DNA of 55,706 nucleotides, filler included, from Sphacelaria rigidula (lineage: Eukaryota): NCBI GenBank assembly GCA_964200075.2. It is 6 parts of 6 records of this genome, joined end to end, with 100 filler letters (N's around TTAATTAATTAA, not from the genome) between each part and the next. Parts side by side here need not be neighbours in the genome. Positions count along the whole stretch, not along the records: positions 1 to 9,202 come from CAXNAA020009053.1; 5 more parts are not named here. The stretch is one strand, 5' to 3'. Below are positions 1,926 through 50,356 of the stretch, one piece after another. The translations under genes and the position numbers were made by a program. The number at the start of each line of letters is the position of its first letter. Within the stretch, counting starts at the first letter, position 1. Below the pieces are notes generated by a model. The model made no database searches. It was not told where the DNA came from and saw nothing but the letters and a program-made list of their open reading frames with translations.

Positions 1926-3054
1926 AACCTGGTGCTACTACGCTTTGTACCACCAGTAGAGCGCCAACCTCCTTGACTGCCACGCCTCCCTCCGGAGCAA
2001 TATTATTGCAAGAACCTTATCCTTCCCCCAAAGCTGTGGGGTGTGGAAAACTCGTCGACACAATCCTCTGTAGCCCACCATTCTGACTCGTAACTGAGTC
2101 AAGTACATGGTGTATGTCGCGCCGGGTCCGGCAACAGGAAGGTCCGGCGATAATACCGTTCCGAAAAGAGGCCTGGCCCCCGAGGTGTTGCAACGTGTAC
2201 AGTGCACAAAATACAGCGCACCACCTGGTTGGGAAGCAGGACTAGTGCAAGCGGATAGCGTCGCCCCTGTAGATAACGTCATGCTCAGCAGACATCGAAA
2301 TATTTCATTGTCCCACCAGAGCTATCATTCATGGCAGAATCGCCGGCACATTTTTCCTGGCGGAAATTTGGGCGCGAGTCGCACTTTACCCGTGCTACAG
2401 TCGTGCCAAGATCTCCTCGTCCCGCAGCAAATAACCACCCACGGCTCTGTCGCAAGTCCTTGACACGTACATGCGCATATTTTGTATGCGAAGGAACATA
2501 AGAAATACACCGCAGCACGGGCGGCTTCTCCATACCAACAAACGCCTTCTCACCCTCCATCATGTACAAACCAGCTTTCCGTTCAGCACGGTAGTAACAG
2601 TAGACGAGGCATACAAGCTAGCAGGCCCAAATATATGTCGTAGGGCGATAGAAAAGCAGAGGGAGTGGAATATATCTGCGGGATTGTGGGGCATGACGTT
2701 GGAAATGCACCGAACCTCTTGTGTTCACATGCAGTACTTGACATCTTGTCTATATTTCCACAAGCGGCTGTCACGGTCAGTCGTCCAACGGATGGATCCC
2801 TGCAAGTGATCTCCGAACGGAACAAGGAGGTTGCATCGAGCAATTCATTACTATTGCTACTACTACCCTTATATCATTATCTGGCCACCGACCGCGCCAA
2901 GTATACCTGTATCACCCCTCGACTATCTCACAATCAAAGTGATCATCACTTGTTCTTCAACAAAATATCGACCTGGTTATTCCTTACACCACAACCATGA
3001 CGGTCTTCCAAAGCGTCTTGAGCATCTTGCTCTTGCTCATAGCAGCAACGGCGA

Positions 3055-6000
3055 GGGGCACGCTTGCCTACTCTTCTGTTGTTGGAGGTGATGACCCCAC
3101 CACACCGCGACCAGCTACAGCGAGGTGGTCAGGTCAGCCCACGTACACGACAAACAAATCACGCTGTTCTTGCCTCATCGCGTCAGCTGCCAAGACACGA
3201 AGATGCGAGAATCCCATACATCTGTCTCAGATCCATAGAGTTCTCACACCCCATGCCTTCACAGCTCACGCCATCAGGCAAGAACACCCTCACTTCTTCG
3301 TCGTTGTCGTAGGAGGACCTGAGCACTTCCCTGCAGCTACAGCACGCAGCAAGCTTGCCTACTCTTCCGTCGCTGAGGGTTAAGACACAACCACAACCGT
3401 GACCCGCTGGAGCGAGGTGCTCAGGTCCACCCACGGGAACGACGAACAAATTACGGTACTCTTGTATGACTGCGTCAGCTGCCAAGACACGAAGATGCGA
3501 GAATCCCATACATCTGTCTCAGATCCATAGAGTTCTCACACCCCATGCCTTCACAGCTCACGCCACCAGGCAAGAACACCCTCACTTCTTCGTCGTTGTC
3601 GTAGGAGAACCTGAGCACTTCCTTGCAGCTACGCCACGTAGCACGCTTGCCTACTCTTCCGTCGTTGAAGGTTAAGACACAACCACCGTGACCCGCTGGA
3701 GCGACGTGCTCAGGTCCACCCACGGGAACGACGAACAAATCACGCTGCCCTTGCCTCATCGCGTCAGCTGCCAAGACACGAAGATGCGAGAATCCCATAC
3801 ATCTGTCTCAGATCCATAGAGTTCTCACACCCCATGCCTTCACAGCTCACGCCATCAGGCAAGAACACCCTCACTTCTTCGTCGTTGTCGTAGGAGAACC
3901 TGAGCACTTCCCTGCAGCTACGGCGAGTAGCACACTTGCCTACTCTCCTGTGGTTGGAGGTGATGACCCCACCACACAGCGACCAGCTGCAGCGAGATGC
4001 TCAGGTCCACCTATGAAAACGACGAACAAATCACGCTGTTCTTGCCTCATCGCGTCAGCTGCCAAGACACGAAGATGCGAGAATCCCATACATCTGTCTC
4101 AGATCGATGGGATTCTCACACCTCGTGGCTTCACAACCGCCATCAGTCAAGAGCACCGTTAAGGGTTCGTCGTTGTCGTAGGAGGACCTGAGCACTTCGC
4201 TGCAGCTACTGTGAGTAGCACACTTGCCTACTCATTTGTCGTTGGAGGTGATGACCTCACGACCACCGTGACCCGCTGGAGCGAGGTGCTCAGGTCCACG
4301 TATGGAAATGACGAACAAATTACGGTCTCCTCGCCTCATCGCGTCAGCTGCCAAGACACGAAGATGCGAGAATCCCATACATCTGTCTCAGATCCATAGA
4401 ATTCTCACACCTCGTGGCCTTACAGCTCACGCCATCAGGCAAGAACACCCTCACTTCTTCGTCGTTGTCGTAGGAGAACCTGAGCACTTCCCTGCAGCTA
4501 CGGCAAGTAACACGCTGGCCTACTCTTCTGTTGTTGGAGGTGAAGACCCCACCACACCGCAACCGGCTGCAGCGAGGTGCTCAGGCCCACCCACGGGAAC
4601 GACGAACGAACCACGCTGTGTTTGCCTCATCGCGTCAGCTGCCAAGACACGAAGATGCGAGAATCCCATCCATCTGTCTCAGATCCATAGAATTCTCGCA
4701 CCTCGTGGCCTTACAGCTCACGCCATCAGGCAAGAACACCCTCACTTCTTCGTCGTTGTCGTAGGAGACCCTGAGCACTTCCCTGCAGCTACGGCAAGTA
4801 GCAAGCTTGCCCATTCTTCTGTCGTCGGAGGTAGAGACCCCACCACACAGCGATCAGCTGCAGCGACGTGCTCACGTCCACCTATGGAGATAAGGAAAAA
4901 ATTACGGTCTTCTTGCCTGACCGCGTCAGCTGTCAAGACACGAAGATGCGAGAATACCATCGATCTGTCTCATACCGATGGGATTATCACACCTCGTGGC
5001 TTTACAGCTCACGCCATCAGGCAAGGACACCGTCACTTGTTCGTCGTTGTCGTAGGAGGATCTCCTATGGCGTGTGGGGATGGGTACTATTCTGATGCAA
5101 GGAGTGCGAGTGTGAGCACCTCGCTGCAGTTACGGAGCAATGCTACGGTGAGGGTGCACTTCTTTCGCGAAATTATGTCAAGTTCAAGGACTCGTAACGA
5201 TTCCAAATGCATTCCCGTTTGCAAATTCATTCGGGATATTCCCAGCACATTGGAGTAGTAATCCTGGCGTACTCTCACATATTTTCAAAGGTCGTGTTTT
5301 GCATGAGATACAGGGCTCCTAACATTTCTAACCTCAGAAAATATTCGTGCACCCTCACCGTAGCATCACTCCACGGAAAGTAGCACGCTTGCCTACTCTC
5401 CTCTCGTTGAAGGTGATGACCTCACCACACCGCGACCAGCTGCAGCGAGATGCTCAGGTTGACCTACGAAAACGACGAACAAATGACGCTGTTCTTACCT
5501 GATCGCGTCAGCTGCCAAGACACGAAGATGCGGGAATCCCATCCATCTGTCTCAGATTCATAGGATTCTCACACCTCGTGATTTCACAGCTCACGCCATC
5601 AGGCGAGGACACCGTCATTTGTTCTTTAGTTCCACAGGTGGACCTGAGCACTTCGCTGCAGCTACGGCAAGTAACACTCTCGCCTCCTCTCCTGTCGTTG
5701 AAGGTGATGACACTACCACCACCGCGACCAGCTGCAGCGAGGTGCTCAGGTCCGCCTACGAAAACGATGAACAAATCGCGGTCTTCTTGCCTGATCGTGT
5801 CAGCTGCCAAGACACGAAGATGCGAGAACACCGTCGATCTGTCCCAGATCGATAGGACTATCACACCTCGTGGCCTTACAGCTCACGCCATCAGGCAACA
5901 GCACCGTCAAGGGTTCGTCGTTGTCGTAGGAGGACCCGACCACCTCACTGCAGCTACGGCGAGGAGCACGCTTGCCTACTCTTTTGTCGTTAAAGGTGAA

Positions 6001-6296
6001 GAACCCACCACCACCGTGACCAGCGGCAGCGAGGTGCACAGGTCCGCCTACGACAACGACGAACCCTCGACGGTCTTCTCGTCGCATCGCGTGAGCTTCC
6101 AAGCTACAAAGGTGCGAGAATCATCACCTCGAACCTTTGTAGCTTGGAAGCTCACGCGATCAGGCACCAACACCGTCAAGGGTTCGTCGTTTTCGTAGGC
6201 GGACCTGAGCACCTCGCTGCCGCTGGTCGCGGTGTGGTGGGTTCTTCACCTACAACAACTGAAGAGTAGCCAAGCGTGCTCCTTGCCGCAGCTGCC
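3055..6296. repeat. Tandem array of ten ~291-bp units, each an internal imperfect palindrome
   Basis: Core gcgtcagctgccaagacacgaagatgcgagaat (or a variant) starts at 3180, 3472, 3761, 4052, 4341, 4632, 4923, 5505, 5797 and 6089. Within a unit, gtgctcaggtcc..acgacgaa and ttcttgcctcatcgcgtcagctg are reverse-complementary to cagctcacgccatcaggcaagaa and ttcgtcgt..ggacctgagcac. Confidence 0.95.
5135..5371. mobile_element. MITE (237 bp, GAG...CTC termini, possibly Sola-like) inserted into a unit of the hairpin array
   Basis: TIRs gagcaatgctacggtgagggtgcac / gtgcaccctcaccgtagcatcactc; flanks tacg / cacg. Removing it restores the array consensus gcag.tacgg.aagtagcacgcttgcc. Confidence 0.88.
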
Positions 6297-7389
6297 AAGG
6301 GCAACAGCAAGACGCTCAAGATGCTCTGAAAGACTGTCATGGTTCTGGTGTAAGGAATAACCAGGGGGGATGGTTTGCAGATGACGACAAGTGATAATCA
6401 CTTCGATTGTGAGGTGGTGCGGGGGTGAGACAGACATGCATGGTGCGGTCGATTGCCAGATAATGATCCAACGGTAGTAGGAGCAATAGCAATGAATCTC
6501 TCCATAGGACCTCCTCGTCTCATTTACAGATCACTTGCAGGGATCCATCGGTCGGACGACCGACCGTGACAGCCGCATGTGGAAAGATAGACAAGATGTC
6601 AAGTACTGCATGTGAACACAAGAGGTTCGGTGCCCTTCCAACATCATGCCCTATAATCCCGCAGACATTTTCCACGCCCCCCTGCTTTTGTATCGCCATA
6701 CTACATATATCGAGCCGTGCTGAATTGCAAGCTGGTTTGTACATCATGGTGGGTAAGAAGGCGCGTGTAGGTATGGAAAAGCCGCCTGTGCTGCCGTGTG
6801 TTTCGTATTCTCATTTGCATACAAAACATGCGCGTGTATGTCCACGACTTGCGACAGAGCCGTGGGTGGTTGTTTGCTGCGGGGCGAGGAGATCATGGCA
6901 CGACTGCAGAACGGATAAAGTACTGTCCGTGCCCGAAAATAGAAATGTGTCAGCGATTCTGATATGAACGACAGCTTCAATGGGATGGTGGGATATTATG
7001 ACATCTGCTCAGCATGACGTTACCTACTGGGTCGACGCTATCCGCACCCACGAGTCCCGTACCCCCACCAGGTGGTGCTCTGTACTTTGTGCACTGTGCA
7101 CGTTGCAACACGTGGGCCGCCACGCCTCTGTTCGGAACAGTATGATCGCGGGACCTTCCTGGCGCCGAACCCGGCACAGAATACACCATTTACTCACGTT
7201 AGTTGCGAGCAAAAATGGTAGAGAGATGATGGTGCCGGCGATTTTTCCACGTACGACAGCTTTGATGAGGGGATGAAGTTTCCACGATATCTTTGTTCGC
7301 AAAGAAGGCGTGGCAGTAACAGAGGTGGTGTTATACTCGTACGTGTAGTACAAAAAGTACAGGCATCAGGCGGAAGTGAGGTGCCCTCG

Positions 7390-7582: not shown

Positions 7583-9120
7583 CTTGCGGAAAACTGGGAT
7601 CAGAGGAAAGATGGGGAGAGTGGTAAAGGAGATGACATAATGTACCAAAATTGCCATGATGCTAGACGGGGGAATATCGAAATACTTCGATACCTTACGA
7701 GGAGTTGCACAAGGGTGTACGCAATCACCCACTTTATTCAAGGTATTCCTTAGTGACCTGATGTTAGCGATAGCAGCAGCAAATCAAAGGGCCATAGTGG
7801 GTGAATATGTGATACAAGAATTGATGTTCGCGGATGATTTTGTGGGGACTTCAGGAACACCAGAAGGATTGCAAAAACAAAGAGACAAGTCGCTAAAATA
7901 CATCAGGAAATGGTAGAGTGACAACGAACGTTAAAAAATGCGCGGTACTCGTCTATCACGAAGAAGAATCCGGTAAAGTGCAAGCGGATGTCGGGAGAAG
8001 AGGAACTGCCGATCGTAGACCAATATGCATACCTTGGCGTGGGGATCTCGAGAAACTGTTCTTGGGATGCACACATAAACGAAGAAATAGAAAAGGGCAA
8101 GGCACAGATAGGCAGGATGGACATGATCCTCAGAGACCCGCGCCTAGACACTAGGATCAAGACATGTATCCTGATGAACGTCATTGTACCAAAGCTGGAA
8201 TATGCAGGAGAAGTATGGGCGGGGAACGTGAAGTTGGTGAAGAAGTTGGAAACAGTACAGATGGCAGCAGCTAAGAAAATACTTGGATGCTCGATAACGA
8301 CGGGTGACGCAGTTTTGAGAGCAGAGTTGGGAATATACTCACTTAAAACGAACAGAGACATGAGTAAATTGAGGTGGCAATACAGCGTACAGAACATGCT
8401 GAGGAAGAGATTGCCAGCGATGGTTGATAAGGCTGTATGAAAGAAAATTACGGAAGGGCATGCTGCGGAATAAGGTGGGATAAAGTCGAGAAAATATACA
8501 AGGAGATAGGAGCAAACCAAGACGAAATGCTGCCCATAAGTGAAGACGCGGGGCACAAGACGAAAGTAAGATACATGATAGAAATAAGGGGGAAATAGTC
8601 CTTAGACGCAACGTAGACGAGGAAGAACACCTGGAGATATACGGGTGGTTGAGAGAGGGGAAAGCTCTGAAACTGCGATTTCGGGTTGGGGATCTGGACC
8701 TGCTAGAGAGAACAAAGATATATACCAGTCGTCGAGAGGAGGAGGAGGTGGATGGACAGAACTGCCCCTGTGGCAAAGCAATAGAGAGCAGAAGTCATTG
8801 AGTTGCAGAATGTGAACTATACAAGGAGGAACGGGACGTGCTGGGGGGGGAAATGCGAGACGTGAACGGAGGCGGCATGAAACTGTTTGAGGCATTAGAC
8901 AGTAGCGAGAAAACGATGGCTATACTAGGAGATAGATGGTAGCCACAGACGGCTAAACAGGACGGGCATGAGATAAGTAAAAGGTTTTTGTGCAATGTAT
9001 GGAATAAACGTAATGAGCACCTAAATGTTGGAGGTGTCTCTATTAGGAGAAGGAACGGTGCTCCGTTTCGAAAGAGATGCGTGGTCAATGGTCAAACGAC
9101 TACGGCAAGCAACAAATGAG
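7583..9120 (+). mobile_element. 5'-truncated, pseudogenised non-LTR retrotransposon: reverse transcriptase C-terminal part, thumb, CCHC finger and 3' end
   Basis: RT motifs GVAQGCTQSPTLF and LMFADD (7656-7916), YAYLGV and IVPKLEYAGEVW...LRAELG (7988-8440); C-terminal CPCG..ESRSH..AEC at about 8760-8815; several stops and frameshifts (e.g. TAG at 7914-7916). Confidence 0.93.
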
Positions 9121-9202: not shown

Positions 9203-9302
9203 NNNNNNNNNNNNNNNNNNNNNNNNNNNNNNNNNNNNNNNNNNNNTTAATTAATTAANNNNNNNNNNNNNNNNNNNNNNNNNNNNNNNNNNNNNNNNNN
9301 NN
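9203..9302. other. Artificial scaffold linker N44-TTAATTAATTAA-N44 (also 18505-18604, 27806-27905, 37107-37206, 46407-46506)
   Basis: Identical 100-bp spacer giving stops in all six frames; the flanked segments decrease in length from 9202 to 9200. Confidence 0.98.
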
Positions 9303-10087
9303 AACCATCTCTCTCCATGCAGGACCGTACATCTTTCAGTCCCCCCGTCCCCTTCCCCCTCCCTCTTTTTTTTTGCTTCATCGAAATATTTCACATGTTG
9401 ACCAAAAGTACCATGAAAGCAATACCATGAGAGCAGTATGGAGGCTTCTGAAAGTAGCCTCGTTTAGGTGCAGGTGCAGGGGTGATCCAACGGACACACG
9501 TAACCCTTCAACACAAGTCAAGATAAGGGTGCGGCGTGGTGTTCACGCAGCTAGCTCTAAAGCTTGTCGACCCACTTTTTTTTTTTTCCGCAGAACTTTG
9601 ATCATTCTGACTCATGGTGAACTCGTGTCAAGTTCTCGAGAACCTTGTGCATTATCCATCCTCCCTCGCTCCGAGTCCAGTAGCATAGTCAGTCTATACA
9701 CGTGGAGCAGTTTCGGTTCCTGGAGGCTTCACCATGTCTAGCGGCTAAATTACTTGGATATGAGGTATCCCTCTCCTAAATTTGGGCTCGGATGAAGACA
9801 TTATGGAGCGTGCCTGTTTCCACATAGAGCACTTTCATCGGGACACAAACCTAGATGTATACGCAGATCGAGCCTGGTCAGATTGAGATTTTGTCCATGT
9901 TTGGATCTGTCTCAATCTGGCCTCGGTGGAGGAAGCCCAGATCGGTGTTTGGGATTTCCCGCTCGGAGGGTAAGGGTAGTGAAGTGAAACGAGTTTCAAA
10001 TCACAATCTCGTGAGTGAGGGGTTGGTAGCCACACTATTCATAGGGCTTGTGCGGGAAATTCATTTTTGCCCCCCCTCCCCCTCGCC

Positions 10088-29760: not shown

Positions 29761-31292
29761 GAGCATGTCGCAGGGGCCTGTCTTTTCTAACTTTATTTCG
29801 CTTTTTTTTCTCATCGGGACCGTTTTTATTTTAGTTTTAGTTTTTCTCGTTGTACCCTTCCTTTTCCTTTTTCTGCTTGCTTTAGTTTTGTTTTTTGTTT
29901 TTCAGGTTACGATACTCCGTTTGCCTTCATGTTTTTTTTTTCTTCGTCTGCCATCGTTCTCGAATTTCGTTTTAGCGAGCGTTTCCGCTGTGTTTACCTT
30001 GAACACATGTATCTCGTGGATACATGACCAATCACGCCTGGCTCTCTCGAGGATCAGTTAATGTGCGTCAATCAATCAACCAAACGAACACACAATGAAC
30101 GACGCCTACACGGGAAGGCCCTTGCCATTCAAATGCCCGTGTCACATATGTCACAGCACTACACTACAGTAGAGGGCAGTCAGCCATTCGTGCACAAGGC
30201 AGGTCACCGGCATTATTATATCATAATCAACGGTGAACCAACGTTACAGTAGCCGCGATCGCGCGAAGAGCAACTACAGTGGTACATCCATGTGGTCAGC
30301 ACGCAAATAATTTCGAATCGTTTGTTGCTGAAGAGTACCCCCCCCCCCCCCCCCCCCCCCCCGCCAGCCAAACAAAAAACACAACACGCAAGCGCATACC
30401 ACCACAACCACCACACCAACCACACCAACAGACCAAAATACTNNNNNNNNNNGCTACCCATGTGGCCCGCACCCAAAAAATTTCGAATTCTTGTTTGCCG
30501 AAGAGTCCCCCCCCCCCCCCCCCCAACAGGCGATTGAATAGCATGAACGGACACACGTTGACGTATCCACAAGCAACACGCATGCAACATCAGGGGTGAG
30601 CTTATCGTTTTTCATATACCCTTGCTTCCGTCCGCGCCTATTTGCTGCCGAGTCTGAGGCAGACGCGGCCTACAAAAAACCCCACACCGCCCTCTCAACC
30701 ATGGTGGTCTGCCGCGAGGCTATTGGCGGAAAAGCACAATACGCGAAATCTGTTCCAGCGTCCGAAAGTCGTGATAGGTCTTCCTCGTCTAAAGTATTGC
30801 CATCCTCCACGGGTCTGTCAGGCCTCGCAGCAGGCCGCAGGCTCTGAAGCTGCGAGCTACCGCAATAATCAGTGTTATTGTTCAGACCTGCGGCTAGTGG
30901 TGTTCGCGAACCAGAGGAGAGCTAATCCACTTATTGAAGGATCGATGTTACTGGCATCGAAGGTCATAAGCGAATGGAGTGACATTGTAACTGTTCTGAA
31001 AAATATGTCTAGCGCGGACTGGGAGGTCGAATCATTTTGCGTGGACTGCGAAGATTGATGCATCTGTTATGACGTAGTGAGCAATTCTACATTGAAGAAA
31101 GGGTTCTACCAATGTATATCTTTTTTCATTGCGGATATGGGCTCAACAAAAACTAATAATAAGGTTCAATTGCACACCATCGTTTAAACGTGTTTTTCAA
31201 CATGTTTTTCAACATGTTTTTCAACATGTTTTACACTTGAACCGGTGTCAGAAGCACGGTTGTTTTTTATGGAGGGGGGATGAACAAAGGGT

Positions 31293-31319
31293 TAACCCTA
31301 ACCCTAACCCTAACCCTAA
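31293..31319. repeat. Interstitial telomere-type repeat (TAACCC)4
   Basis: taaccctaaccctaaccctaaccctaa; a 12-bp repeat (catgtttttcaa) lies nearby at about 31190-31231. Confidence 0.8.
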
Positions 31320-35329: not shown

Positions 35330-36227
35330 GTGAGTTCTGTTTTTGCTACAGTACGTAGTACATCATAGTGCATACATGTATTCGTGGAGGCAGTGGCGCT
35401 GGGGCGGAGGACGGTGATTGCCACAGTACAATGTTGACGACAGTTGACGCGGTGCGAGGGTGCTGAATCAATCCGCGAGACCAGGATGGAAGGCGTGTGC
35501 CGAGGAGAGATAAGTTGACCCCTTGACACCACAGACGCGTCCCGAGGAAGGGGAGAGGTTCAGAGTGCGGCAAAGAGTGCGGCAAAGAATTAAACACATG
35601 GATAAAATTATTAAATTATAAAATTATTCAGATGACATACAAATATTTGAAGTATTTCAGTTACCAGGTCAGTTACCCAGGTATATTATCCCAATCTTTT
35701 TTTTTCTTTTCAGGCAGTACCTCAGGTCGGCGGGCGACCACCATGGACTACCCGACAGGTCTATCGAAGTATTGATTCCGACGGGAACTACATATTTTTT
35801 CAGAGGTTGAATACGTACAGCTATCTATCATCTGGTGTCATGAATTAAAGGGCACCGTCGCGGTGTCGAGATATGATTGAAGTTTCACGAAATATTGATA
35901 TCGGGGGGGTGTGGATAACCTAGGGTTTCGGCGCTCGCTATCCGTCATTTTCCAGTCCCATGCGTGCGCCAGTCCGGTCAATAATGAGGACTCTCAATGA
36001 TTATTCGATTCAACGACAGAAAGGAATGGCTGTATGAAGTGCTGCTGCTGCTGCAGTGCAGCACATCCCGAAAGGTTGCTTGCTCGACGGAGGGCTGATC
36101 ATCGCCCTTGCCGTGTCAATTCATCTTATGTGAAGGTTTCTTCCGCTGTCTCTCTCTCCCTGTCTGTCTGTTCCCTCTATCTCTCTATTTCTGTCTCTCT
36201 ACCGACCTGATCGCGAAAAAATATAAG

Positions 36228-36365
36228 GTGCGGGTGGTGGGGCATTCCCTCGGGGCGGGGTGTGCCGCGCTGCTGACGCTCCTGTTGAAACCAGCGTACC
36301 CTTGCGTGAGGGGGATCGCAGTCAGTCCACCGGGAGGACTCGTGTCGGAGGGGGCCTGCCGAGAG
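36228..36365 (+). CDS. Class-3 lipase, catalytic-serine exon (VRVVGHSLGAGCAALLTLLLKPAYPCVRGIAVSPPGGLVSEGACRE)
   Basis: GHSLG nucleophile elbow and SPPGG motif as in DAG-lipase-like enzymes; long pyrimidine tract then an aag acceptor; the donor could instead be gtacgt at about 36377-36381. Confidence 0.9.
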
Positions 36366-36530
36366 GTGGGGATGGGGTACGTACGTAATCGTGATTGTTA
36401 TGGCTGTGGGAGCAGCGACGTCCTCTGCCGCGCACAGTGTTTGGTGTTTATGTTTTTGGCGTTTGCACCTGCGGGAGAAAAGCTGCGGCCAAGCGTGTGT
36501 GTGAGAGTACCTGCATCTGATGATGAAATT

Positions 36531-36787
36531 GAGCAGTGCTACGGTAGGTGTGCACTTTTTGCGCGGAATCTTGTCTACTTCAGGGGCTCCCAACGATTTT
36601 TGATGCGCAAGAATATGAGTCAGGGCACCCCCGTTTGCAAATTCATCCGGGATATTCCCAGCACTTTGGAGTAGTAATCCTGGCGTACTCTCACATATTT
36701 TCACAAGTCGTGTTTTGCATGAGATGCAGGGTTCCTAACAATTCTAACCTCATAAACCTTCTGTACACCCCTACCGTAGCATCACGC
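36531..36787. mobile_element. MITE, same family as 5135-5371
   Basis: TIRs gagcagtgctacggtagg.gtgcac / tacacccctaccgtagcatcacgc; internal ccgtttgcaaattcat.cgggatattcccagcac.ttggagtagtaatcctggcgtactctcacat shared with the 5135 copy. Confidence 0.88.
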
Positions 36788-40118: not shown

Positions 40119-43100
40119 CGTGTTTCTGCTTTGCCTTTTTTGTCGTAGGGGGACCTCACCCAACACTTACCCCGCAAGCGCGTTTGTGTACCTATTTCCC
40201 GGAGGCTCGGTTCCTGGCGGCAGTCATGTGGGGTAGGTGCCTCGAGCGTTTGGAAACCTTGGTCGAGGCAAGTGGGGGGGAGTCCAGTCCACTACCCCCC
40301 CGTCAACTTGGCGCAGTGTAGACGCCGCTCTAATCTTGTTAGCTTCCGCCCGAGGTATCTCCCGCCCTGATTGGCTTTGGTTGTATTACTTGTAATGCAG
40401 AACGCACATTCATCTTCCTACAGTGTTGTCACCGCGTCTCTCTCGGTATTTTGATTGTTGGGTTGATCGGGTCTGTCGTCTATCGCCCGCAAAACAAATG
40501 TTGGGCGAGATTAGAACAGTCTATGAATAATTGTGACTCTACAAAACAGCAGCCGTGCAGTGCAGTAGATACACTGGCATTCATCGGGGTGAGATCTGAC
40601 ACAAATAATATAAATACGACGTGCCCACTACCCTGTGAAACGTCGCGTCGAATAGTAAAGCTTGGCCGTCTGTGGAGTTGTGCGTGTTTTGTGCAATACA
40701 CCCCCTTTCGTACCATACGGACGTATGTAGGTGCACTATTAATAGGGGGGTTCGTGTTTCTTCTTGCGCCGACAGCTTCATGATAAACACAGTTGACCAC
40801 AGATACGCACTATCTAGGTGCGGTGTCTTTGCCAACGCCCCAAGACACACGCGGATTGACATGGTGAGTGCATCGTGACGCATGTCGTCACCGTGCCTGT
40901 TACCGGGGGTGCTGAAAAAATCGGACAATATCAATAACTTGAACACACGGCCAGGACAATTTGAACTTTGGGAAAATCCTCACATTTGCTTCCATGTCCC
41001 TGATGTGTGCTGAGTTGTCCTCCTGCTGTACGCACACCGGTTAATGAGAGACGGATGTTCACCGTTTCCAAACTTGACAACTTGGACAAGTGAAGACAAA
41101 ACTGTCAAGCATCTGTCCCTCGTTTTCCCACAAACAATTTGGTGCGACGCAAACGCCTTGACCACTCTCTCGCGCGCTACGGGGATACTGTCGACTGCAC
41201 CAATTGCGACATGCGCTGCGCGCCCGTAATTACTGACTGTGCTGTTGACCTATTTGCTATCTGCCATCCCGGCGTATTTCACTTTGTTTATAAACTACGT
41301 GCTCACGAAAAGGTACAAAATTGCGGTCGCTTCTACTTAAATCTTCGCCAGCTGGGGTGTGTTCATAGCGAAGATACTCGACTAGTGGACTGAGGTAACA
41401 GCATGTGCGCGGGAAACACTTACCCTGCGTGTCGATCGTCTCATCTCCAAATAGTTTTGCGCGCAGTATCTTTCCTCATGCTATGAATTGGTGAAGAAAA
41501 TAGGTGCGTCACGTTGCTGGAACGTGACGTAGCGGCTTTGGGCTGTATTTTTATCCAGGCTCAGACCTAGGCAACAGAAACCAATCGGCATACTATATAC
41601 CTAAAAGGTGTACCGGTAATTAAAGTGCAAATAAATAACTGATAGGGTGATAGTCGGGAGTTAAATAGCACTAGTACTGCAGGTGCCAGGCGTTGAGTTT
41701 TCGCAGCATGTTCCTGTGTCAATCTCAATATACGTGTAGTTTGTAATTGAGATGTCGCTATATACTTCTGTTGATTGGTGTATACCCAAACATTGACGGG
41801 GCGCTTCGTGGCGGTTCTCCAAATGATGTGCGTGTAATGAATGCCAACGCCAACTCAGAACTTTATGTCAAAGAAACACGTGCTAAATTGGCGCCTACAG
41901 TTGTCGAAACGAGCAAACTCGTCTACGCGTGTACCTTATATCGCTAGATATACCAAAATTGATCGCTGTGCAACTCAAACAATATTTTTTTCTGTTCAAA
42001 ACATCCTTTCCTTGCCCCCGTTACAATGAGCATACTTGTCGCCTGGACACCTGTTGTGCAGCGTATAAATATAGTTGTTTGCGCGAGATTTGCGTGGTGA
42101 ATTTCTGATAGTTTGGTCGTTTTGTTGACTGTTCAACATTTCTTCGATTTTTGAACAACCTACTCGTTCGGTGATGATTGATCGGTTTGATTGGTTGATT
42201 AATTGATTGAGTGATTGATGGTCGCACATTAATCCCAGAGGGATCCAGTCCAGAAGGGATGGCAAGGTAGATGTAACTAGGAAATACTCGCTATTTTGGA
42301 AGAAACTCGAGAGATATCAAGGAGAAGAAAGGGATATAAGGAAAATCGGGGTCAACTGAAGGAACACAAGAAACAAGCAGCACAAGAAAAACCCGTGAGC
42401 TAAAGAAAGGAGAAGGGACTGACGCCGCGGTATCCCCCCCCCCCCCCCCCCCCCCCCCCAGGGAAAGGGGCGGTTTGAGCCGGAAAAAAACAAACGCAAA
42501 NNNNNNNNNNGAGCTGAAGAAAAGAGGCGGGAGTGGCCCCGGGGTGCCCCCCCCCCCCCCCCCGACCCCCCCACGAGGAAAGTGGTCGATTTGAGCAGGA
42601 AAAATCGAAACGCAAATCAAACGATAAAACCCAAGCAGACCAAGCAACTGGAGACTCCGACGCTCGGGATCTTTTTCGCTAGTACATTTACCTGAGGCAC
42701 CTCATGCAGTATGAAACCAGCTATCGTGCGCTGTACGGCCATCATCTTGGTGGCAGTTTGGGGGTGGTTTGGCGGGGGTGGGGGGGGGTGGGGGGGGGGG
42801 TTATCGTGGCATCACTCAAAGAAAGGAAAAGAAGAATACGAACACGAATAGCCGGATGGAGTTCCTATGTTTCAAGCATAAGATGTCGTGCTTGTAGAGG
42901 AGAGCAAGTTAACGCTTGGCTCGTGAAGCATGTGCCCTAACTTCCGATTTCCTTCCACTTTGTTTTGGTTTGTGTTTGTAAGGCGCCTCTAGCTTGAGTC
43001 ATGCCCCCGGGCCTGCCGTCCTTCATTTCCCCGTGTTGTTCCACGGGTGTCCTTACTTTAGCGAGCGCGCCATCTATTTTCGTCGGATACATCTATCTTC

Positions 43101-43501
43101 TCACCACGGCTCGAACCGTAGCAGGTTGTAGAATTGACGTGCGAGAATCGATCAATCGATCGTCAACCAATCAACTGCGACATGTGAACGTTTTCGGCGT
43201 GATTCACACGTTATGGAACCTCTACATTTTATTTCGCTCAATATACTCGTATCGAGATTATTTCCTGTGGATACTACCTGACTGTGTGTGTGGTCATGTC
43301 CAGTCATCCGTGATGTGAAGAGTTTTGCACACTACAACAAGTAAGTTTCGTGTGAGTGGGGGCGGAGGGGGGGGGAGGGGGGGGGAGGGGAGTTGGATTG
43401 GTGGGGAAAGTGGGGGTGATTGGTTGTGCTTTTGNNNNNNNNNNGTGGGGGGTCGGGTGGTGGGGGGGGGGGTGTGGGCTGTTAAGGGAGGGGGGGGGAG
43501 T

Positions 43502-43554
<53 letters not shown>

Positions 43555-48137: not shown

Positions 48138-48726
48138 CTAGTTGAACGTGTACGACGCGCCCACAAGGTCGTTGATGATGTACGGCTGGTTCGACAACTC
48201 CTCGTGCACCATCATCGCCAGAATACCCATCTGCGCTGCGCGACCGTTGTTTAACTCGATCGCGCGCTTCGACGCCTGCGTCTCCTCCGACATCGATGTC
48301 CACGCGTCCGGGGTGCCCGCCAGGGTAAAGTCTCCCGGGAACGACCCCTCCACGTTCTTCATCACCGCCAGCTCAAGGAAACCGATGAAAGCCACGATCT
48401 GGGCCAGACCCGCCGGCGGGATCTTCGACAGAGCCGCCACACCGTTCGGCATGTCGGCGAAAGAGATGCCCGCCGACGTCGACAGCATGCCGGGCAGTCG
48501 GGTGTTCTGCTGGGTCAAGTGACCCGCGATCGCCAACATGGCAATGCGGCCGTGCTTCACCTCCACGTAGCGCAGTCGGTCGAAGCGCTCCTGGTCAGCG
48601 TCGGCCAGAAGGCCGAGCGGGTCCCAGAACCCGAGCGGGGGCTGTGCGCCGATCTCGGACTCGAACGCCATCTTCATCGCGGACGACGACCGGGCGGCTT
48701 GGGTCACGGCGGCACCGTTGAAGGCA
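48138..48726 (-). CDS. lhcf: Fucoxanthin-chlorophyll a/c binding protein (FCP), exon 2: transit peptide and mature protein
   Basis: cag acceptor at 48727-48729, phase 2; LHC motifs GFWDPLGL, LRYVEVKHGRIAMLA and ELNNGRAAQMG; TAG at 48138-48140; spliced product 216 aa. Confidence 0.97.
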
Positions 48727-50356
48727 CTGTGAATTTGGGGGGAAATGGGCCGATGGGTACACGGGACACGGGAGATCAGAAGGAGGAAGAGCGGCGCATC
48801 GTCAAGAAACCTCTTACGCAAGCAAGGTTTATCGATCTCAGGTGGCTTCACCACGCTCCTGGCTACTTCGAAGGTGAAACTTTCGCATTGTGGCACCCTT
48901 TACTCGAATCTGGATCTCAAGGTTATGCTCGTACCCCACGAGATTCCTTGGAGTTGAAGGAATGTCAAGTACCGGTTTGAAAATCTTGTCCGGGTACGCT
49001 AAAAGTTTGTGGGAGCATTTGAGAATTTCCTCAAAAGGATAGTTAAGTTGATCAACGCCCGAATAAGCGGTACGAGCGGACAATTTCCTTGTCATCAACT
49101 TATGGTATCGTTTGCTCTCGTGAAGGGTACGCTGAAGCAGGGTCTCGAGAAACAAATCGAGAGTGCCGCCGTGGCCCAGGATACGTTGTTTTTCCTGTGC
49201 GCAGTAGCTCCCTCAAAAATGTCCATAAAAAGCAAAAAGTGACGTCGCGTCCATGTGGGTAAACACAAAAATTCAACTGTTGAAACTCGCACGGGTGGTG
49301 AAATGCTCGGTTCCCCCGTATCAAGTCCGTCCACGACCGAATATAGCTCACCCTGCCGTGTCTCGCACTTTTCTTGGAGCCTCATCAATTCTCGACTCTC
49401 AAGTGTCATGCCAGGAAGAGGAAAGGGCTTCTCGACTTTTGAAAAGCACAGGTGACAGCTGGTGGTACGTTACAGCTTCGACTCGGCCACGCTACATCAT
49501 GTGGCCTGCTAATATCAACATCATGGGGAGACTTCTACCGCCGTGCGGCAGTACAACAGAGTCACGGCACGGTCGTGTTTGATCAGGGGCACCGCTGTCT
49601 GATTTCACGTACTCACCATGGTACAACGAGCACTAGTACGCGTTTACGTAACGACAAAACGCACCGCAATAAGGCCGCCACGAATACGAGCATGGCTATC
49701 CAACCCGGTACTCGTGATAAACGGTACACATGAAGGTACAATCCTGTACAGGACGGCGTTAGGCACACAGTTTCATGATGAAATGTGTCCGATGAAAATT
49801 CGGTACGCATGGGAATGTCGTCAACACCATGAAGCATGATCGTCCTCGCGCCCTCCGGGCAGTTGGGAGAACGCGTCGGGGAATATGCTTTCCACGAAGT
49901 TGATACGACGGGCATTGCTTAACGGGCGCGTTTTGGGCGTCAAGTAGTAAGTTACCCTGGTTTCAGGGCAGTACAGTACAGAGCAGCTGACGGTCGGTGT
50001 GTTGCAGGCCTTGACGCCCTGAACCTTCTGGTACCGTGTAGAAAGTGTACTGCATACAACATGGATGAAGAGCGTATTTGGATCACACGCAACAGTCCAT
50101 ACCGTACGCAGTATACTGTTATGAAACTGGAATCCCTTGTCCAGGGTATGGAAGCCCTCGGACAAGCCTATGAATTCTCATCACCATCGTCGTGCGCTCA
50201 GCAACATGACTATACACAGCATAACACCCGCGTGTAGCTCCGTTCCATATATGACACCAGAAGGTTGACCCGTCACGCAGCCGGTTTTGGACAAGGGAGA
50301 AAATACATCATGCATTTACTAAATATGGGCACAGCCTAGATTACAACAATCCTCAC

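Follow-up and report, generated by a model that had tools for sequence, protein, structure and literature searches.

Ten tandem hairpins derived from a secreted-protein gene in Sphacelaria rigidula: a possible hairpin-RNA or proto-miRNA locus

The inverted copying of a protein-coding exon is a known route to hairpin-RNA genes and young miRNA genes. The inverted-duplication model (2004) reportedly holds that the foldback arms taken from a coding gene decay, apart from a short parent-complementary stretch that is retained. The miRNAs of brown algae evolved independently of those of plants and animals. Drosophila hairpin RNAs (hpRNAs) are described as derived from protein-coding progenitors that they silence in trans, and the tandem hairpins of hp-CG4068 as arising from one common transcript, with a copy number that shifts fast (PMC10317233). 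In the two published brown-algal surveys, miRNA loci are mostly intronic, rarely clustered and without similarity to protein-coding genes, and the surveys conclude that brown-algal miRNAs come from random genomic hairpins (PMC4513859, PMC5381526). The clusters given there are two pairs within 5 kb in Ectocarpus (PMC4513859) and six small clusters in Saccharina japonica, all except one of two genes (PMC5381526). The Ectocarpus miRNA foldbacks have a mean length of 170 nt (PMC4513859), and the RISC-bound small RNAs of Ectocarpus are 21 nt long, about 90% of them with a 5' U (PMC12867755). Our full-text literature search found no brown-algal hairpin locus of gene origin. The Sphacelaria locus described here combines clustering and gene origin, features that the surveys reported as rare or undetected, and it could bear on whether the inverted-duplication route to small-RNA genes operates in brown algae.

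The locus lies within a 55.7-kb window (the whole stretch of DNA that was analysed). A preliminary description had proposed ten hairpin units of about 291 bp, and these were borne out by arm-to-arm alignments and by Tandem Repeats Finder, which reported one tandem array at 3042-6122 (period 291, 10.6 copies, 75% matches); the ten units together occupy 3042-6240, with no strand assigned. Each unit runs from a spacer (the tail of the signal-peptide coding sequence) through arm 1 (the end of exon 1 in sense orientation) and a loop to arm 2 (the inverted copy), and the foldback is about 223 nt long. In units 1-9, inverted arms of about 105 nt flank a ATCTGTCTCAGAT loop, which is exact in seven units and variant in two; it is missing from unit 10, a tighter palindrome. 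Arm 1 matches the reverse complement of arm 2 at 74-84 of about 112 columns in units 1-9 and at 99 in unit 10, and the mutual identity of units 1-9 is 77.5-93.8%. Each of the 20 single-unit folds (10 units, two strands) also exceeded its own set of 60 dinucleotide shuffles in stability (z -4.8 to -23.6). The minus strand was the more stable one in 10 of 10 units, clearly in nine, and by 11-61 kcal/mol in units 1-9, the hairpins of which are placed on that strand. Minimum free energies on the minus and plus strands, respectively, were -131.9 and -82.1 for unit 1 (3108-3330), -131.4 and -82.9 for unit 2 (3400-3622), -142.9 and -81.5 for unit 3 (3689-3911), -131.1 and -111.0 for unit 4 (3980-4202), -125.3 and -82.8 for unit 5 (4269-4491), -126.5 and -95.2 for unit 6 (4560-4782), -99.2 and -88.5 for unit 7 (4851-5135; values for 4851-5073), -124.1 and -102.9 for unit 8 (5433-5655), and -122.9 and -108.1 for unit 9 (5725-5947). 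Unit 10 (6017-6239), a near-perfect palindrome to which no strand is assigned, gave -179.7/-186.6. When seven units were folded jointly, the minus strand reached -1171 and the plus strand -873 kcal/mol, and in this multi-unit fold arms can also pair across different units.

Unit 7 is broken by two insertions, one of about 50 bp at 5064-5113, in arm 2, and one of 237 bp at 5136-5372. The larger insertion (no strand assigned) has 18-bp terminal inverted repeats (GCTACGGTGAGGGTGCAC / GTGCACCCTCACCGTAGC) with ACGG on either side. It is a member of a dispersed repeat and lies outside the array proper; blastn found other copies in the window at 36630-36785 (90.4%) and 1-66, and very many public-run contigs align there in all four runs compared. 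The arms of unit 10 (6012-6118 and 6128-6234) are 89% complementary and separated by 9 nt; this unit retains the inferred splice donor GT and forms the junction between the array and the right arm of an enclosing large inverted repeat. The arms of this large repeat are about 1.28 kb long and lie at 1928-3209 (plus strand) and 6128-7370 (minus strand). Blastn aligned 2029-2591 with 7264-6715 (79.0%) and 2631-3209 with 6710-6128 (82.5%), while local alignment stretched the repeat out to 1928/7370, with fuzzy ends at about 71% identity. The left arm takes in some 1.07 kb upstream of the gene, then the gene start and finally arm 1 of unit 1, and both arms carry an ATG and a signal-peptide-like start, facing inward. 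As a separate observation, the sole Pfam match among the array frames and 25 flanking ORFs is an RVT_1 fragment at 7641-7916, and ARAGORN found no tRNA in the window.

Homology identifies the hairpin arms as exon 1 sequence from a family of small secreted proteins. A profile built from 16 translated arms matched 10 proteins at E<=0.001 among 1.84 billion. Four of them (P0001, E 2e-13; P0003; P0005; P0007) are short proteins with a common signal peptide and mature N-terminus, and these matches relate the arms to a protein-coding gene; the remaining six are bacterial-type repeat proteins and were discounted. P0003 and its cluster mate P0011 are both named by NCBI as Sphacelaria rigidula proteins, and the family is otherwise found only in brown-algal and environmental records. 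A profile search with the family alignment returned P0003, P0005 and P0007 again and no further members, so the family looks very small in the searched collection. Pfam gave no family above threshold for these proteins, and an AlphaFold2 model of P0011 (8 sequences) was unusable, with a mean pLDDT of 39 and only the N-terminal helix above 65. An in-frame alignment with the family is obtained for units 5, 9 and 10, the spacer and arm 1 of units 5 and 9 being in the family frame. The left gene start (MTVFQSVLSILLLLIAATARGTLAYSSVVGGDDPT, 2997-3101, plus strand) matches the N-termini of P0001 and P0003 and is out of frame with the downstream mature part of the family, one base having been lost in a CCACCAC run. 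The second gene start, with its ATG at 6340 on the minus strand (MTVFQSILSVLLLPLAAAARSTLGYSSVVVGEEPT), is likewise out of frame with the mature part, and neither flanking gene start can now yield the protein of the family. The two starts differ by 7 synonymous and 10 non-synonymous codon differences over 35 codons (26% synonymous expected), and coding constraint on them was judged unconvincing. Across the inferred exon 1/intron 1 junction, ..TKVRES is found in every one of the family members taken from separate records, hinting that the first intron bases are conserved in the family. We are highly confident of the origin and anatomy of the locus as a gene-derived inverted duplication with tandem hairpins.

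Every unit contains one copy of a 33-mer (GCGTCAGCTGCCAAGACACGAAGATGCGAGAAT), with no mismatch in six of the ten copies, one in two, two in one and six in unit 10. The copy of unit 1 lies at 3180-3212 (minus strand), and identical or nearly identical copies start at 3472, 3761, 4052, 4341, 4632, 4923, 5505 and 5797; the spacing is 289-292 bp, and 582 bp across the interrupted unit 7. The preliminary description had held a segment of the units to be more conserved than the spacer, which proved correct for the 33-mer: the pairwise diversity of units 1-9 is 0.027 in the 33-mer and 0.19-0.25 in the spacer, and none of 5000 column permutations produced a 33-nt window of such low diversity (p<0.0004). 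Conservation of a prospective mature arm above the rest of the precursor (0.027 vs a mean of 0.169) applies among paralogous units only, and the arm facing the 33-mer is not conserved (0.16-0.20). We infer that 23 nt of the 33-mer are the end of exon 1 and the other 10 nt the beginning of intron 1, where AT stands in place of GT, a variant common to all nine copies in units 1-9. Upstream of this island, the derived codon states of arm 1 are 9 synonymous and 41 non-synonymous, so the conservation of the island is not a protein-level constraint. Base pairing on the minus strand of units 1-9 takes in 25-30 of the 33 positions of the 33-mer. At consensus-paired columns opposite the island, the changes in the star arm are six pair-keeping transitions and one pair-breaking transition, with no transversions, and elsewhere in the stem 14 of 43 changes are transversions. 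The window contains no target with good complementarity to the 33-mer, the right-hand gene copy and unit 10 differing at at least 6 of 33 positions. Exact scans of metagenome contigs with the 33-mer and with its most conserved 21-mer gave no matches for either, and a full-text literature search with 15-nt island cores (DNA and RNA spelling, both strands; supplementary miRNA tables outside its scope) returned one unrelated paper.

The best reading of the locus, which we put forward tentatively and at a little less than an even chance, is a hairpin-RNA or proto-miRNA locus that originated in an inverted copy of its target gene and was later amplified in tandem. The sequence shows that a secreted-protein gene was duplicated in inverted orientation. 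The duplicated piece ran from about 1.07 kb upstream through the ATG, the signal peptide and the remainder of exon 1 to a few bases inside intron 1, and a 291-bp piece in which the two copies of the end of exon 1 lie head to head was then amplified in tandem to ten units. The inward-facing upstream regions, or just one of them, may drive transcription into the array, and the RNA of each unit would form an imperfect hairpin of about 105 bp, better on the minus strand, which the host Dicer/Argonaute would cut into small RNAs of about 21 nt. As candidate guide region we take the reverse complement of the 33-mer: when read on the minus strand, the conserved segment would be antisense to the 23 nt that close exon 1 in the parent family, and it would be located on the 3' arm beside the loop. 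The locus would then be narrowing towards a miRNA-like state and silencing the parent gene family in trans. Plant-type and brown-algal miRNA criteria ask for a foldback below 300 nt and a duplex with at most 5 mismatched positions, of which at most 3 in asymmetric bulges. In the 21-mers of the island that start with U (offsets 1, 2, 4, 9 and 12), the number of unpaired positions varies with the unit, from 2 to 6 in the guide and up to 4 on the star side, with 2-3 unpaired guide positions in most units and as many as 4-6 in units 4, 7 and 8; the 33 conserved nt are longer than one 21-nt guide requires. In the 21-mer UCUUCGUGUCUUGGCAGCUGA (minus strand, offset 9), the G-to-A donor change common to nine units supplies the 5' U, and positions 2-21 are antisense to the final 20 nt of the exon 1 copy within the array; this 5' U would fit a 5'U-preferring Argonaute like that of Ectocarpus. 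The more specific proposal that this is a miRNA gene at birth, with ten polycistronic hairpins that have decayed everywhere but in a guide region that is antisense to the exon 1 end, appears unlikely. If the array is a small-RNA locus, the lineage-restricted secreted-protein family would be its regulated target.

The evolution of the stems has to be weighed against this reading. The advantage of the minus strand traces to a few substitutions common to several units, and events counted against unit 10 gave 35 vs 25 for a minus bias, which is not significant (p 0.25). Since amplification, transitions have been balanced (28 keep minus-strand pairs and 27 plus-strand pairs, both arms summed), and as this balance holds in the spacer, in the arms and in the loop, a strand-biased mutation process behind the minus-strand G.U excess is rejected for this period. 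Covariation was marginal: 94.8% of cells are paired vs 93.9% in shuffles, and pairs changed on both sides number 7 vs 4.0 expected, a count matched in 30 of 500 shuffles and owed mostly to unit 10, with a covariation term of +1.75 kcal/mol. Arms are no more complementary within a unit than between units, at 0.698 vs 0.708 for Watson-Crick pairs (permutation p 0.98) and 0.801 vs 0.807 with minus-strand G.U pairs allowed (permutation p 0.96). In the stems of the units, neither compensatory change nor arm co-evolution indicated selection for a structured RNA, and stem positions beyond the island vary as much as the spacer does, contrary to the greater stem conservation that the preliminary description had implied. 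Apart from the island, stem evolution is neutral, with neither arm co-evolution nor coding constraint. The polycistronic, miRNA-like reading of that description is partly supported: it keeps its multi-hairpin anatomy, its one-armed island and its gene-exon arms, and loses stem conservation and arm co-evolution. The same facts are at home in a functionless relic, which we regard as a serious though somewhat doubtful possibility: a fold-back duplication of the 5' end of the gene, amplified by slippage or unequal exchange and now decaying. A relic would account for the frameshift in both gene starts, the units only 77.5-93.8% identical and interrupted by two insertions, the pairing-neutral stem substitutions, and the mosaic arms, which imply exchange between units and arms (a CCCT-to-CAAA block occurs in both arms of some units only). 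The 33-mer would then owe its uniformity to local homogenisation by short gene-conversion tracts, or to chance, instead of selection. However, the island lies off-centre and in one arm only, whereas hairpin-tip breaks or whole-unit exchange should homogenise both sides; units 7-9 are about 78-87% identical to the others overall, yet match at 31-32 of 33 positions in the island; and the donor was not a working paralogue, because the AT variant is in all nine copies.

If selection did keep the 33-mer, it may have been for a sequence-specific role other than that of a small-RNA guide, which we consider improbable. Such a role could be a nine-fold DNA-binding site (the 33-mer contains CAGCTG) or a plus-strand RNA that copies the exon 1/intron 1 junction and serves as decoy for whatever factor or small RNA recognises it. 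The conservation is indeed at the nucleotide level and one-armed, and ..TKVRES spans the inferred junction in family members from separate records; however, the hairpin form of the unit is left unexplained, nothing else in the data suggests such a factor, and known motifs and RNA families gave no match, Rfam 15 at the gathering score having 0 in the whole window. Far less credible is a protein-coding gene with 97-residue repeats. Although 291 equals 3 x 97 and one plus-strand frame is open for 128, 156, 328 and 231 codons over parts of the array, the units of 289 and 292 bp disrupt the frame, units 2 and 3 contain a TAA, and the true frame of the family is a different one that meets stops just beyond each palindrome centre. 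When proteins of 70-224 residues were searched with the 128-residue plus-frame ORF, no relative reached E<=0.01; Pfam placed this frame in no family above threshold, Atlas gave no usable match, and non-synonymous changes outweigh synonymous ones by 41 to 9. No continuous frame with relatives or signs of purifying selection was found. The preliminary description had offered a palindromic satellite inside a Foldback transposon as its alternative, and this we now regard as very improbable. The locus resembles such elements in its long inverted arms of about 1.28 kb around tandem subrepeats, but these arms come from a host gene family, of which they represent the upstream region and exon 1, the roughly 50 nt outside each end have no direct repeat of at least 6 nt that could be a target-site duplication, and the 55.7-kb window holds no second copy of the arms or units. 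In addition, eight contigs from public run X1 on flanks and units have a similar depth (16.5-33), depth not being copy number.

Contigs of X1 show that the locus is genuine DNA: they match both flanks and units with 0 differences, one of them spanning the centre of unit 10 (5861-6220). Part of the stretch is contained in five of the eight listed public runs, from two studies, and none of these is listed as an RNA run. The depths of the eight listed X1 contigs on flanks and units hint at a single locus, with the reservation that depth is not copy number; the bins of the inserted repeat sum to 3.4e4-4.6e5. In X6, X7 and X8, which we guess to be RNA runs, contigs fall only on the inserted repeat (5028-5395) and a diverged piece at 2399-2481, with thin cover of the outer ends; the array itself has no cover, and as these are assembled contigs, this has no bearing on expression.

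Among the described systems, the array resembles the inverted-duplication model in its gene-homologous arms, their decay and the one short conserved segment, and it shows an intermediate state of decayed arms with one conserved island. It differs from that model in having ten tandem hairpins instead of one and a 33-nt segment placed over an inferred exon-intron junction, and the comparison is a sequence-based one. With Drosophila hp-CG4068 it shares many tandem hairpin copies, their number there being 20 in D. melanogaster and 9 in D. simulans (PMC10317233). The Drosophila hpRNA loci have Dicer-2-dependent siRNAs and validated targets (PMC10317233), whereas the small RNAs and targets of the Sphacelaria array are putative; it is set between two inward-facing copies of the parent-gene upstream region and belongs to another lineage with other machinery, Ectocarpus having a single Argonaute (PMC12867755). 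The array is like the brown-algal miRNA loci of the surveys in its long foldbacks, in an expected product length of 21 nt and in a 5' U preference that the island 21-mers could structurally satisfy (PMC4513859, PMC5381526). Unlike those published loci, it is a ten-fold cluster and clearly derived from a coding gene. If it is indeed a miRNA gene at birth, it would be the first brown-algal case of target duplication and by far the largest brown-algal hairpin cluster.

The preliminary description had counted ten tandem units of about 291 bp, and this count holds: Tandem Repeats Finder reports a single array at 3042-6122 (period 291, 10.6 copies, 75% matches), and a conserved 33-mer in arm 1 (3180-3212 in unit 1), the island, is present once in each of the ten units, exactly in six, with one mismatch in two, two mismatches in one and six mismatches in unit 10. 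The 33-mers are spaced 289-292 bp apart, except for 582 bp from unit 7 to unit 8. Unit 7 carries an insertion of about 50 bp (5064-5113), and the spacer after it a 237-bp element (5136-5372) with 18-bp terminal inverted repeats and ACGG flanking both sides. This element, further copies of which lie in the window at 36630-36785 and 1-66, resembles a MITE and seems to be very abundant; very many contigs match it in all four sequencing runs compared, and the bins of one public run (X1) sum to 3.4e4-4.6e5. Each unit also proved to be a long hairpin, as had been proposed: all 20 single-unit folds (10 units, both strands) beat their shuffles, with z from -4.8 to -23.6 at 60 dinucleotide shuffles per fold. 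With about 112 columns aligned, arm 1 and the reverse-complemented arm 2 agree at 74-84 positions in each of units 1-9 and at 99 in unit 10, and the loop ATCTGTCTCAGAT is found in nine units (seven exact, two variant) and is missing from unit 10. The array must be old, because units 1-9 are only 77.5-93.8% identical to one another.

The arms derive from a host gene. Most of the 20 arm copies share a frame that reads ..TSCSEVLRSAYENDE..VFLPDRVSCQDTKMRES, and a profile built from 16 arm translations and searched against 1.84 billion representative proteins matched 10 proteins at E<=0.001. Four of these (P0001, E 2e-13; P0003; P0005; P0007) are short proteins with a common N-terminal signal peptide (MTVF.S.LS.L.LLL..) and the arm peptide at residues ~35-75; the other six, long bacterial-type repeat proteins aligned through repeated short motifs, were discounted. 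P0003 and its cluster mate P0011 are recorded by NCBI for the brown alga Sphacelaria rigidula ("unnamed protein product, partial"), and P0001, P0005 and P0007 come from ENA and Logan contigs. No Pfam domain was found in the family proteins, and the predicted structure of P0011 was unusable (pLDDT 39). In the alignment, units 5, 9 and 10 are in frame with the family from spacer through arm 1. The annotated Sphacelaria proteins go on as ..DTKV|VRFAG.., whereas both the window and the ORF calls made without splicing have ..TKVRES and run into stops shortly afterwards; because the two diverge at this point and unit 10 has AAG|GTGCGAG there, exon 1 probably ends at ..ACGAAG. The 33-mer would then span this junction, with 23 nt from the end of exon 1 and 10 nt from the start of intron 1. 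All of units 1-9 carry AAGATGCGAG at the putative donor, where GT appears to have been turned into AT on the exon 1/intron 1 junction. P0001, P0005, P0007 and the window units (..TKVRES / ..TKMRES) all have V-R-E-S across this putative junction, and these family members are otherwise just ~35-50% identical; across the family, the first ~10 intron bases may thus be more conserved than a splice-donor consensus alone would require.

A large inverted repeat encloses the array, its two arms (1928-3209 and 6128-7370) being 79-82.5% identical. The inward end of each large arm holds an ATG (2997, plus strand; 6340, minus strand) with a hydrophobic, signal-peptide-like N-terminus, and about 1.07 kb of sequence lies upstream of each ATG. 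Both ATG-bearing copies are out of frame, with one base missing from a CCACCAC run. The repeat unit begins within the signal-peptide coding region, arm 1 of unit 1 is part of the left gene copy, and arm 2 of unit 10 is part of the right one. We are highly confident that a secreted-protein gene had its 5' end duplicated in inverted orientation, that the palindromic core was then amplified in tandem, and that coding capacity is now lost. The unit 10 arms (6012-6118 and 6128-6234, 9 nt apart) are 89% complementary, against 79-82.5% in the rest of the large repeat, a difference that points either to a younger origin or to gene conversion between the arms close to the centre of the palindrome.

Directly left of the large repeat, 1880-1927 contains AGATTCGAACC, which resembles a tRNA T-arm when reverse-complemented; an ARAGORN scan of the window found no tRNA, so this segment may be a tRNA-derived SINE remnant. 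Just beyond the right arm, a reverse-transcriptase fragment (7641-8440, plus strand; RVT_1, E 8.9e-07, slightly under the Pfam cut-off) is probably a decayed non-LTR retroelement, and a run of N (X in translation) at ~9259-9303, about 1.9 kb right of the locus, was taken as an assembly gap. Elsewhere in the window, an uninterrupted 253-codon frame at 48138-48899 (minus strand; Chloroa_b-bind, E 5.8e-37) encodes a chlorophyll-binding light-harvesting protein, read as fucoxanthin-type. This frame marks the organism as an alga and, taken with the Sphacelaria rigidula records, supports the brown-algal setting of the preliminary description. A plus-strand ORF at 36099-36674 shows a class 3 lipase motif (E 2.8e-05 for Lipase_3) and overlaps a copy of the abundant 237-bp repeat at its end. 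Simple repeats in the window include 4.5 telomere-like copies of TAACCC at an interstitial position (31293-31319), homopolymer runs of 25 and 26 C (30338-30362 and 42434-42459) and a G-rich run of 68 (43486-43553), and repeats of 10-14 bp that are likewise rich in G lie around 42759-43552.

The preliminary description was likewise right that the 33-mer is more conserved than the spacer. Mean pairwise diversity among units 1-9 is 0.169 overall and 0.027 in the 33-mer, a value reached by none of 5000 column permutations; the best 21-mer, GTCAGCTGCCAAGACACGAAG, which would form the 3'-terminal 21 nt of exon 1, has 0.011 (p 0.0004). Since diversity is 0.19-0.25 in the spacer, 0.21-0.27 in distal arm 1 and 0.16-0.20 in the arm 2 segment facing the island, the conservation is local and confined to one arm. 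It is not coding constraint; the 27 codons ahead of the island hold 9 synonymous against 41 non-synonymous derived states. Nor does it reflect maintenance of the stem as a whole. Arm complementarity is no higher within units than between them (0.698 against 0.708 Watson-Crick, permutation p 0.98), and post-amplification transitions summed over both arms keep 28 minus-strand pairs against 27 plus-strand pairs, the same balance as in the spacer (14 to 13). Paired cells amount to 94.8% against 93.9% in shuffles (matched by 4 of 500), pairs changed on both sides number 7 against 4.0 expected (matched by 30 of 500 shuffles, and mostly from unit 10), and the RNAalifold covariation term is +1.75 kcal/mol, with the tool's caveat that related sequences attain such values without any structure. 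At consensus-paired columns facing the island, the star arm shows six pair-keeping transitions, one pair-breaking transition and no transversions, and in the rest of the stem transversions are 14 of 43 changes; the counts are small, so this pair-keeping bias is suggestive only.

In every one of the ten units the minus strand gives the more stable fold (MFE in units 1-9, -99 to -143 kcal/mol, with the plus strand at -82 to -111; for seven units folded together, -1171 against -873), because arm-to-arm transitions mostly yield G.U on that strand (103 cells against 43). G.U cells common to several units by inheritance are not independent, and counted as events relative to unit 10 the bias is 35 against 25 and not significant (p 0.25). 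The minus-strand assignment is thus a lead, not a result. It is nevertheless coherent with the island, because the conserved arm is antisense to the parent gene in a minus-strand RNA and not in a plus-strand one. On the minus strand the island lies on the 3' arm beside the loop with 25-30 of 33 positions paired, and U-starting 21-mers within it mostly have 2-3 unpaired positions (4-6 in units 4, 7 and 8).

We tentatively regard the array as a candidate hairpin-RNA locus, a reading that falls a little short of an even chance. Transcripts running inward from one of the duplicated upstream regions, or from both, would give hairpin RNAs, possibly together with convergent double-stranded RNA; these would be diced to 21-nt small RNAs, and the island would be the guide region targeting the parent family. 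That the array is instead a functionless relic, its island produced by local homogenisation, is a serious possibility, although we lean against it: the island is off-centre and on one arm, is kept in the most diverged units, and carries in all nine of units 1-9 an AT variant that a working paralogue could not have donated. Another sequence-specific role of the island is unlikely, and a repeat protein is very improbable. The preliminary description's own alternative, a palindromic satellite inside a Foldback transposon, is just as improbable: host-gene sequence makes up the arms, no target-site duplication turned up at the ends, and the window holds no other copy.

The inverted-duplication model of MIRNA birth, reportedly put forward by Allen et al. 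in 2004, predicts decayed arms with one conserved parent-complementary segment, which is the pattern of this locus. Tandem hairpin clustering is shared with Drosophila hp-CG4068, whose copies, 20 in D. melanogaster but 9 in D. simulans, are documented as coming from a common transcript (PMC10317233). Published brown-algal miRNA loci are long foldbacks (mean 170 nt) with 21-nt products starting with 5' U, are rarely clustered and showed no protein-coding gene similarity in Ectocarpus or Saccharina (PMC4513859, PMC5381526, PMC12867755). Our search of the main texts of articles found no report of a brown-algal gene-derived hairpin locus. If active, the array would be a hairpin-RNA or proto-miRNA locus of gene origin, a route not yet seen in this lineage.
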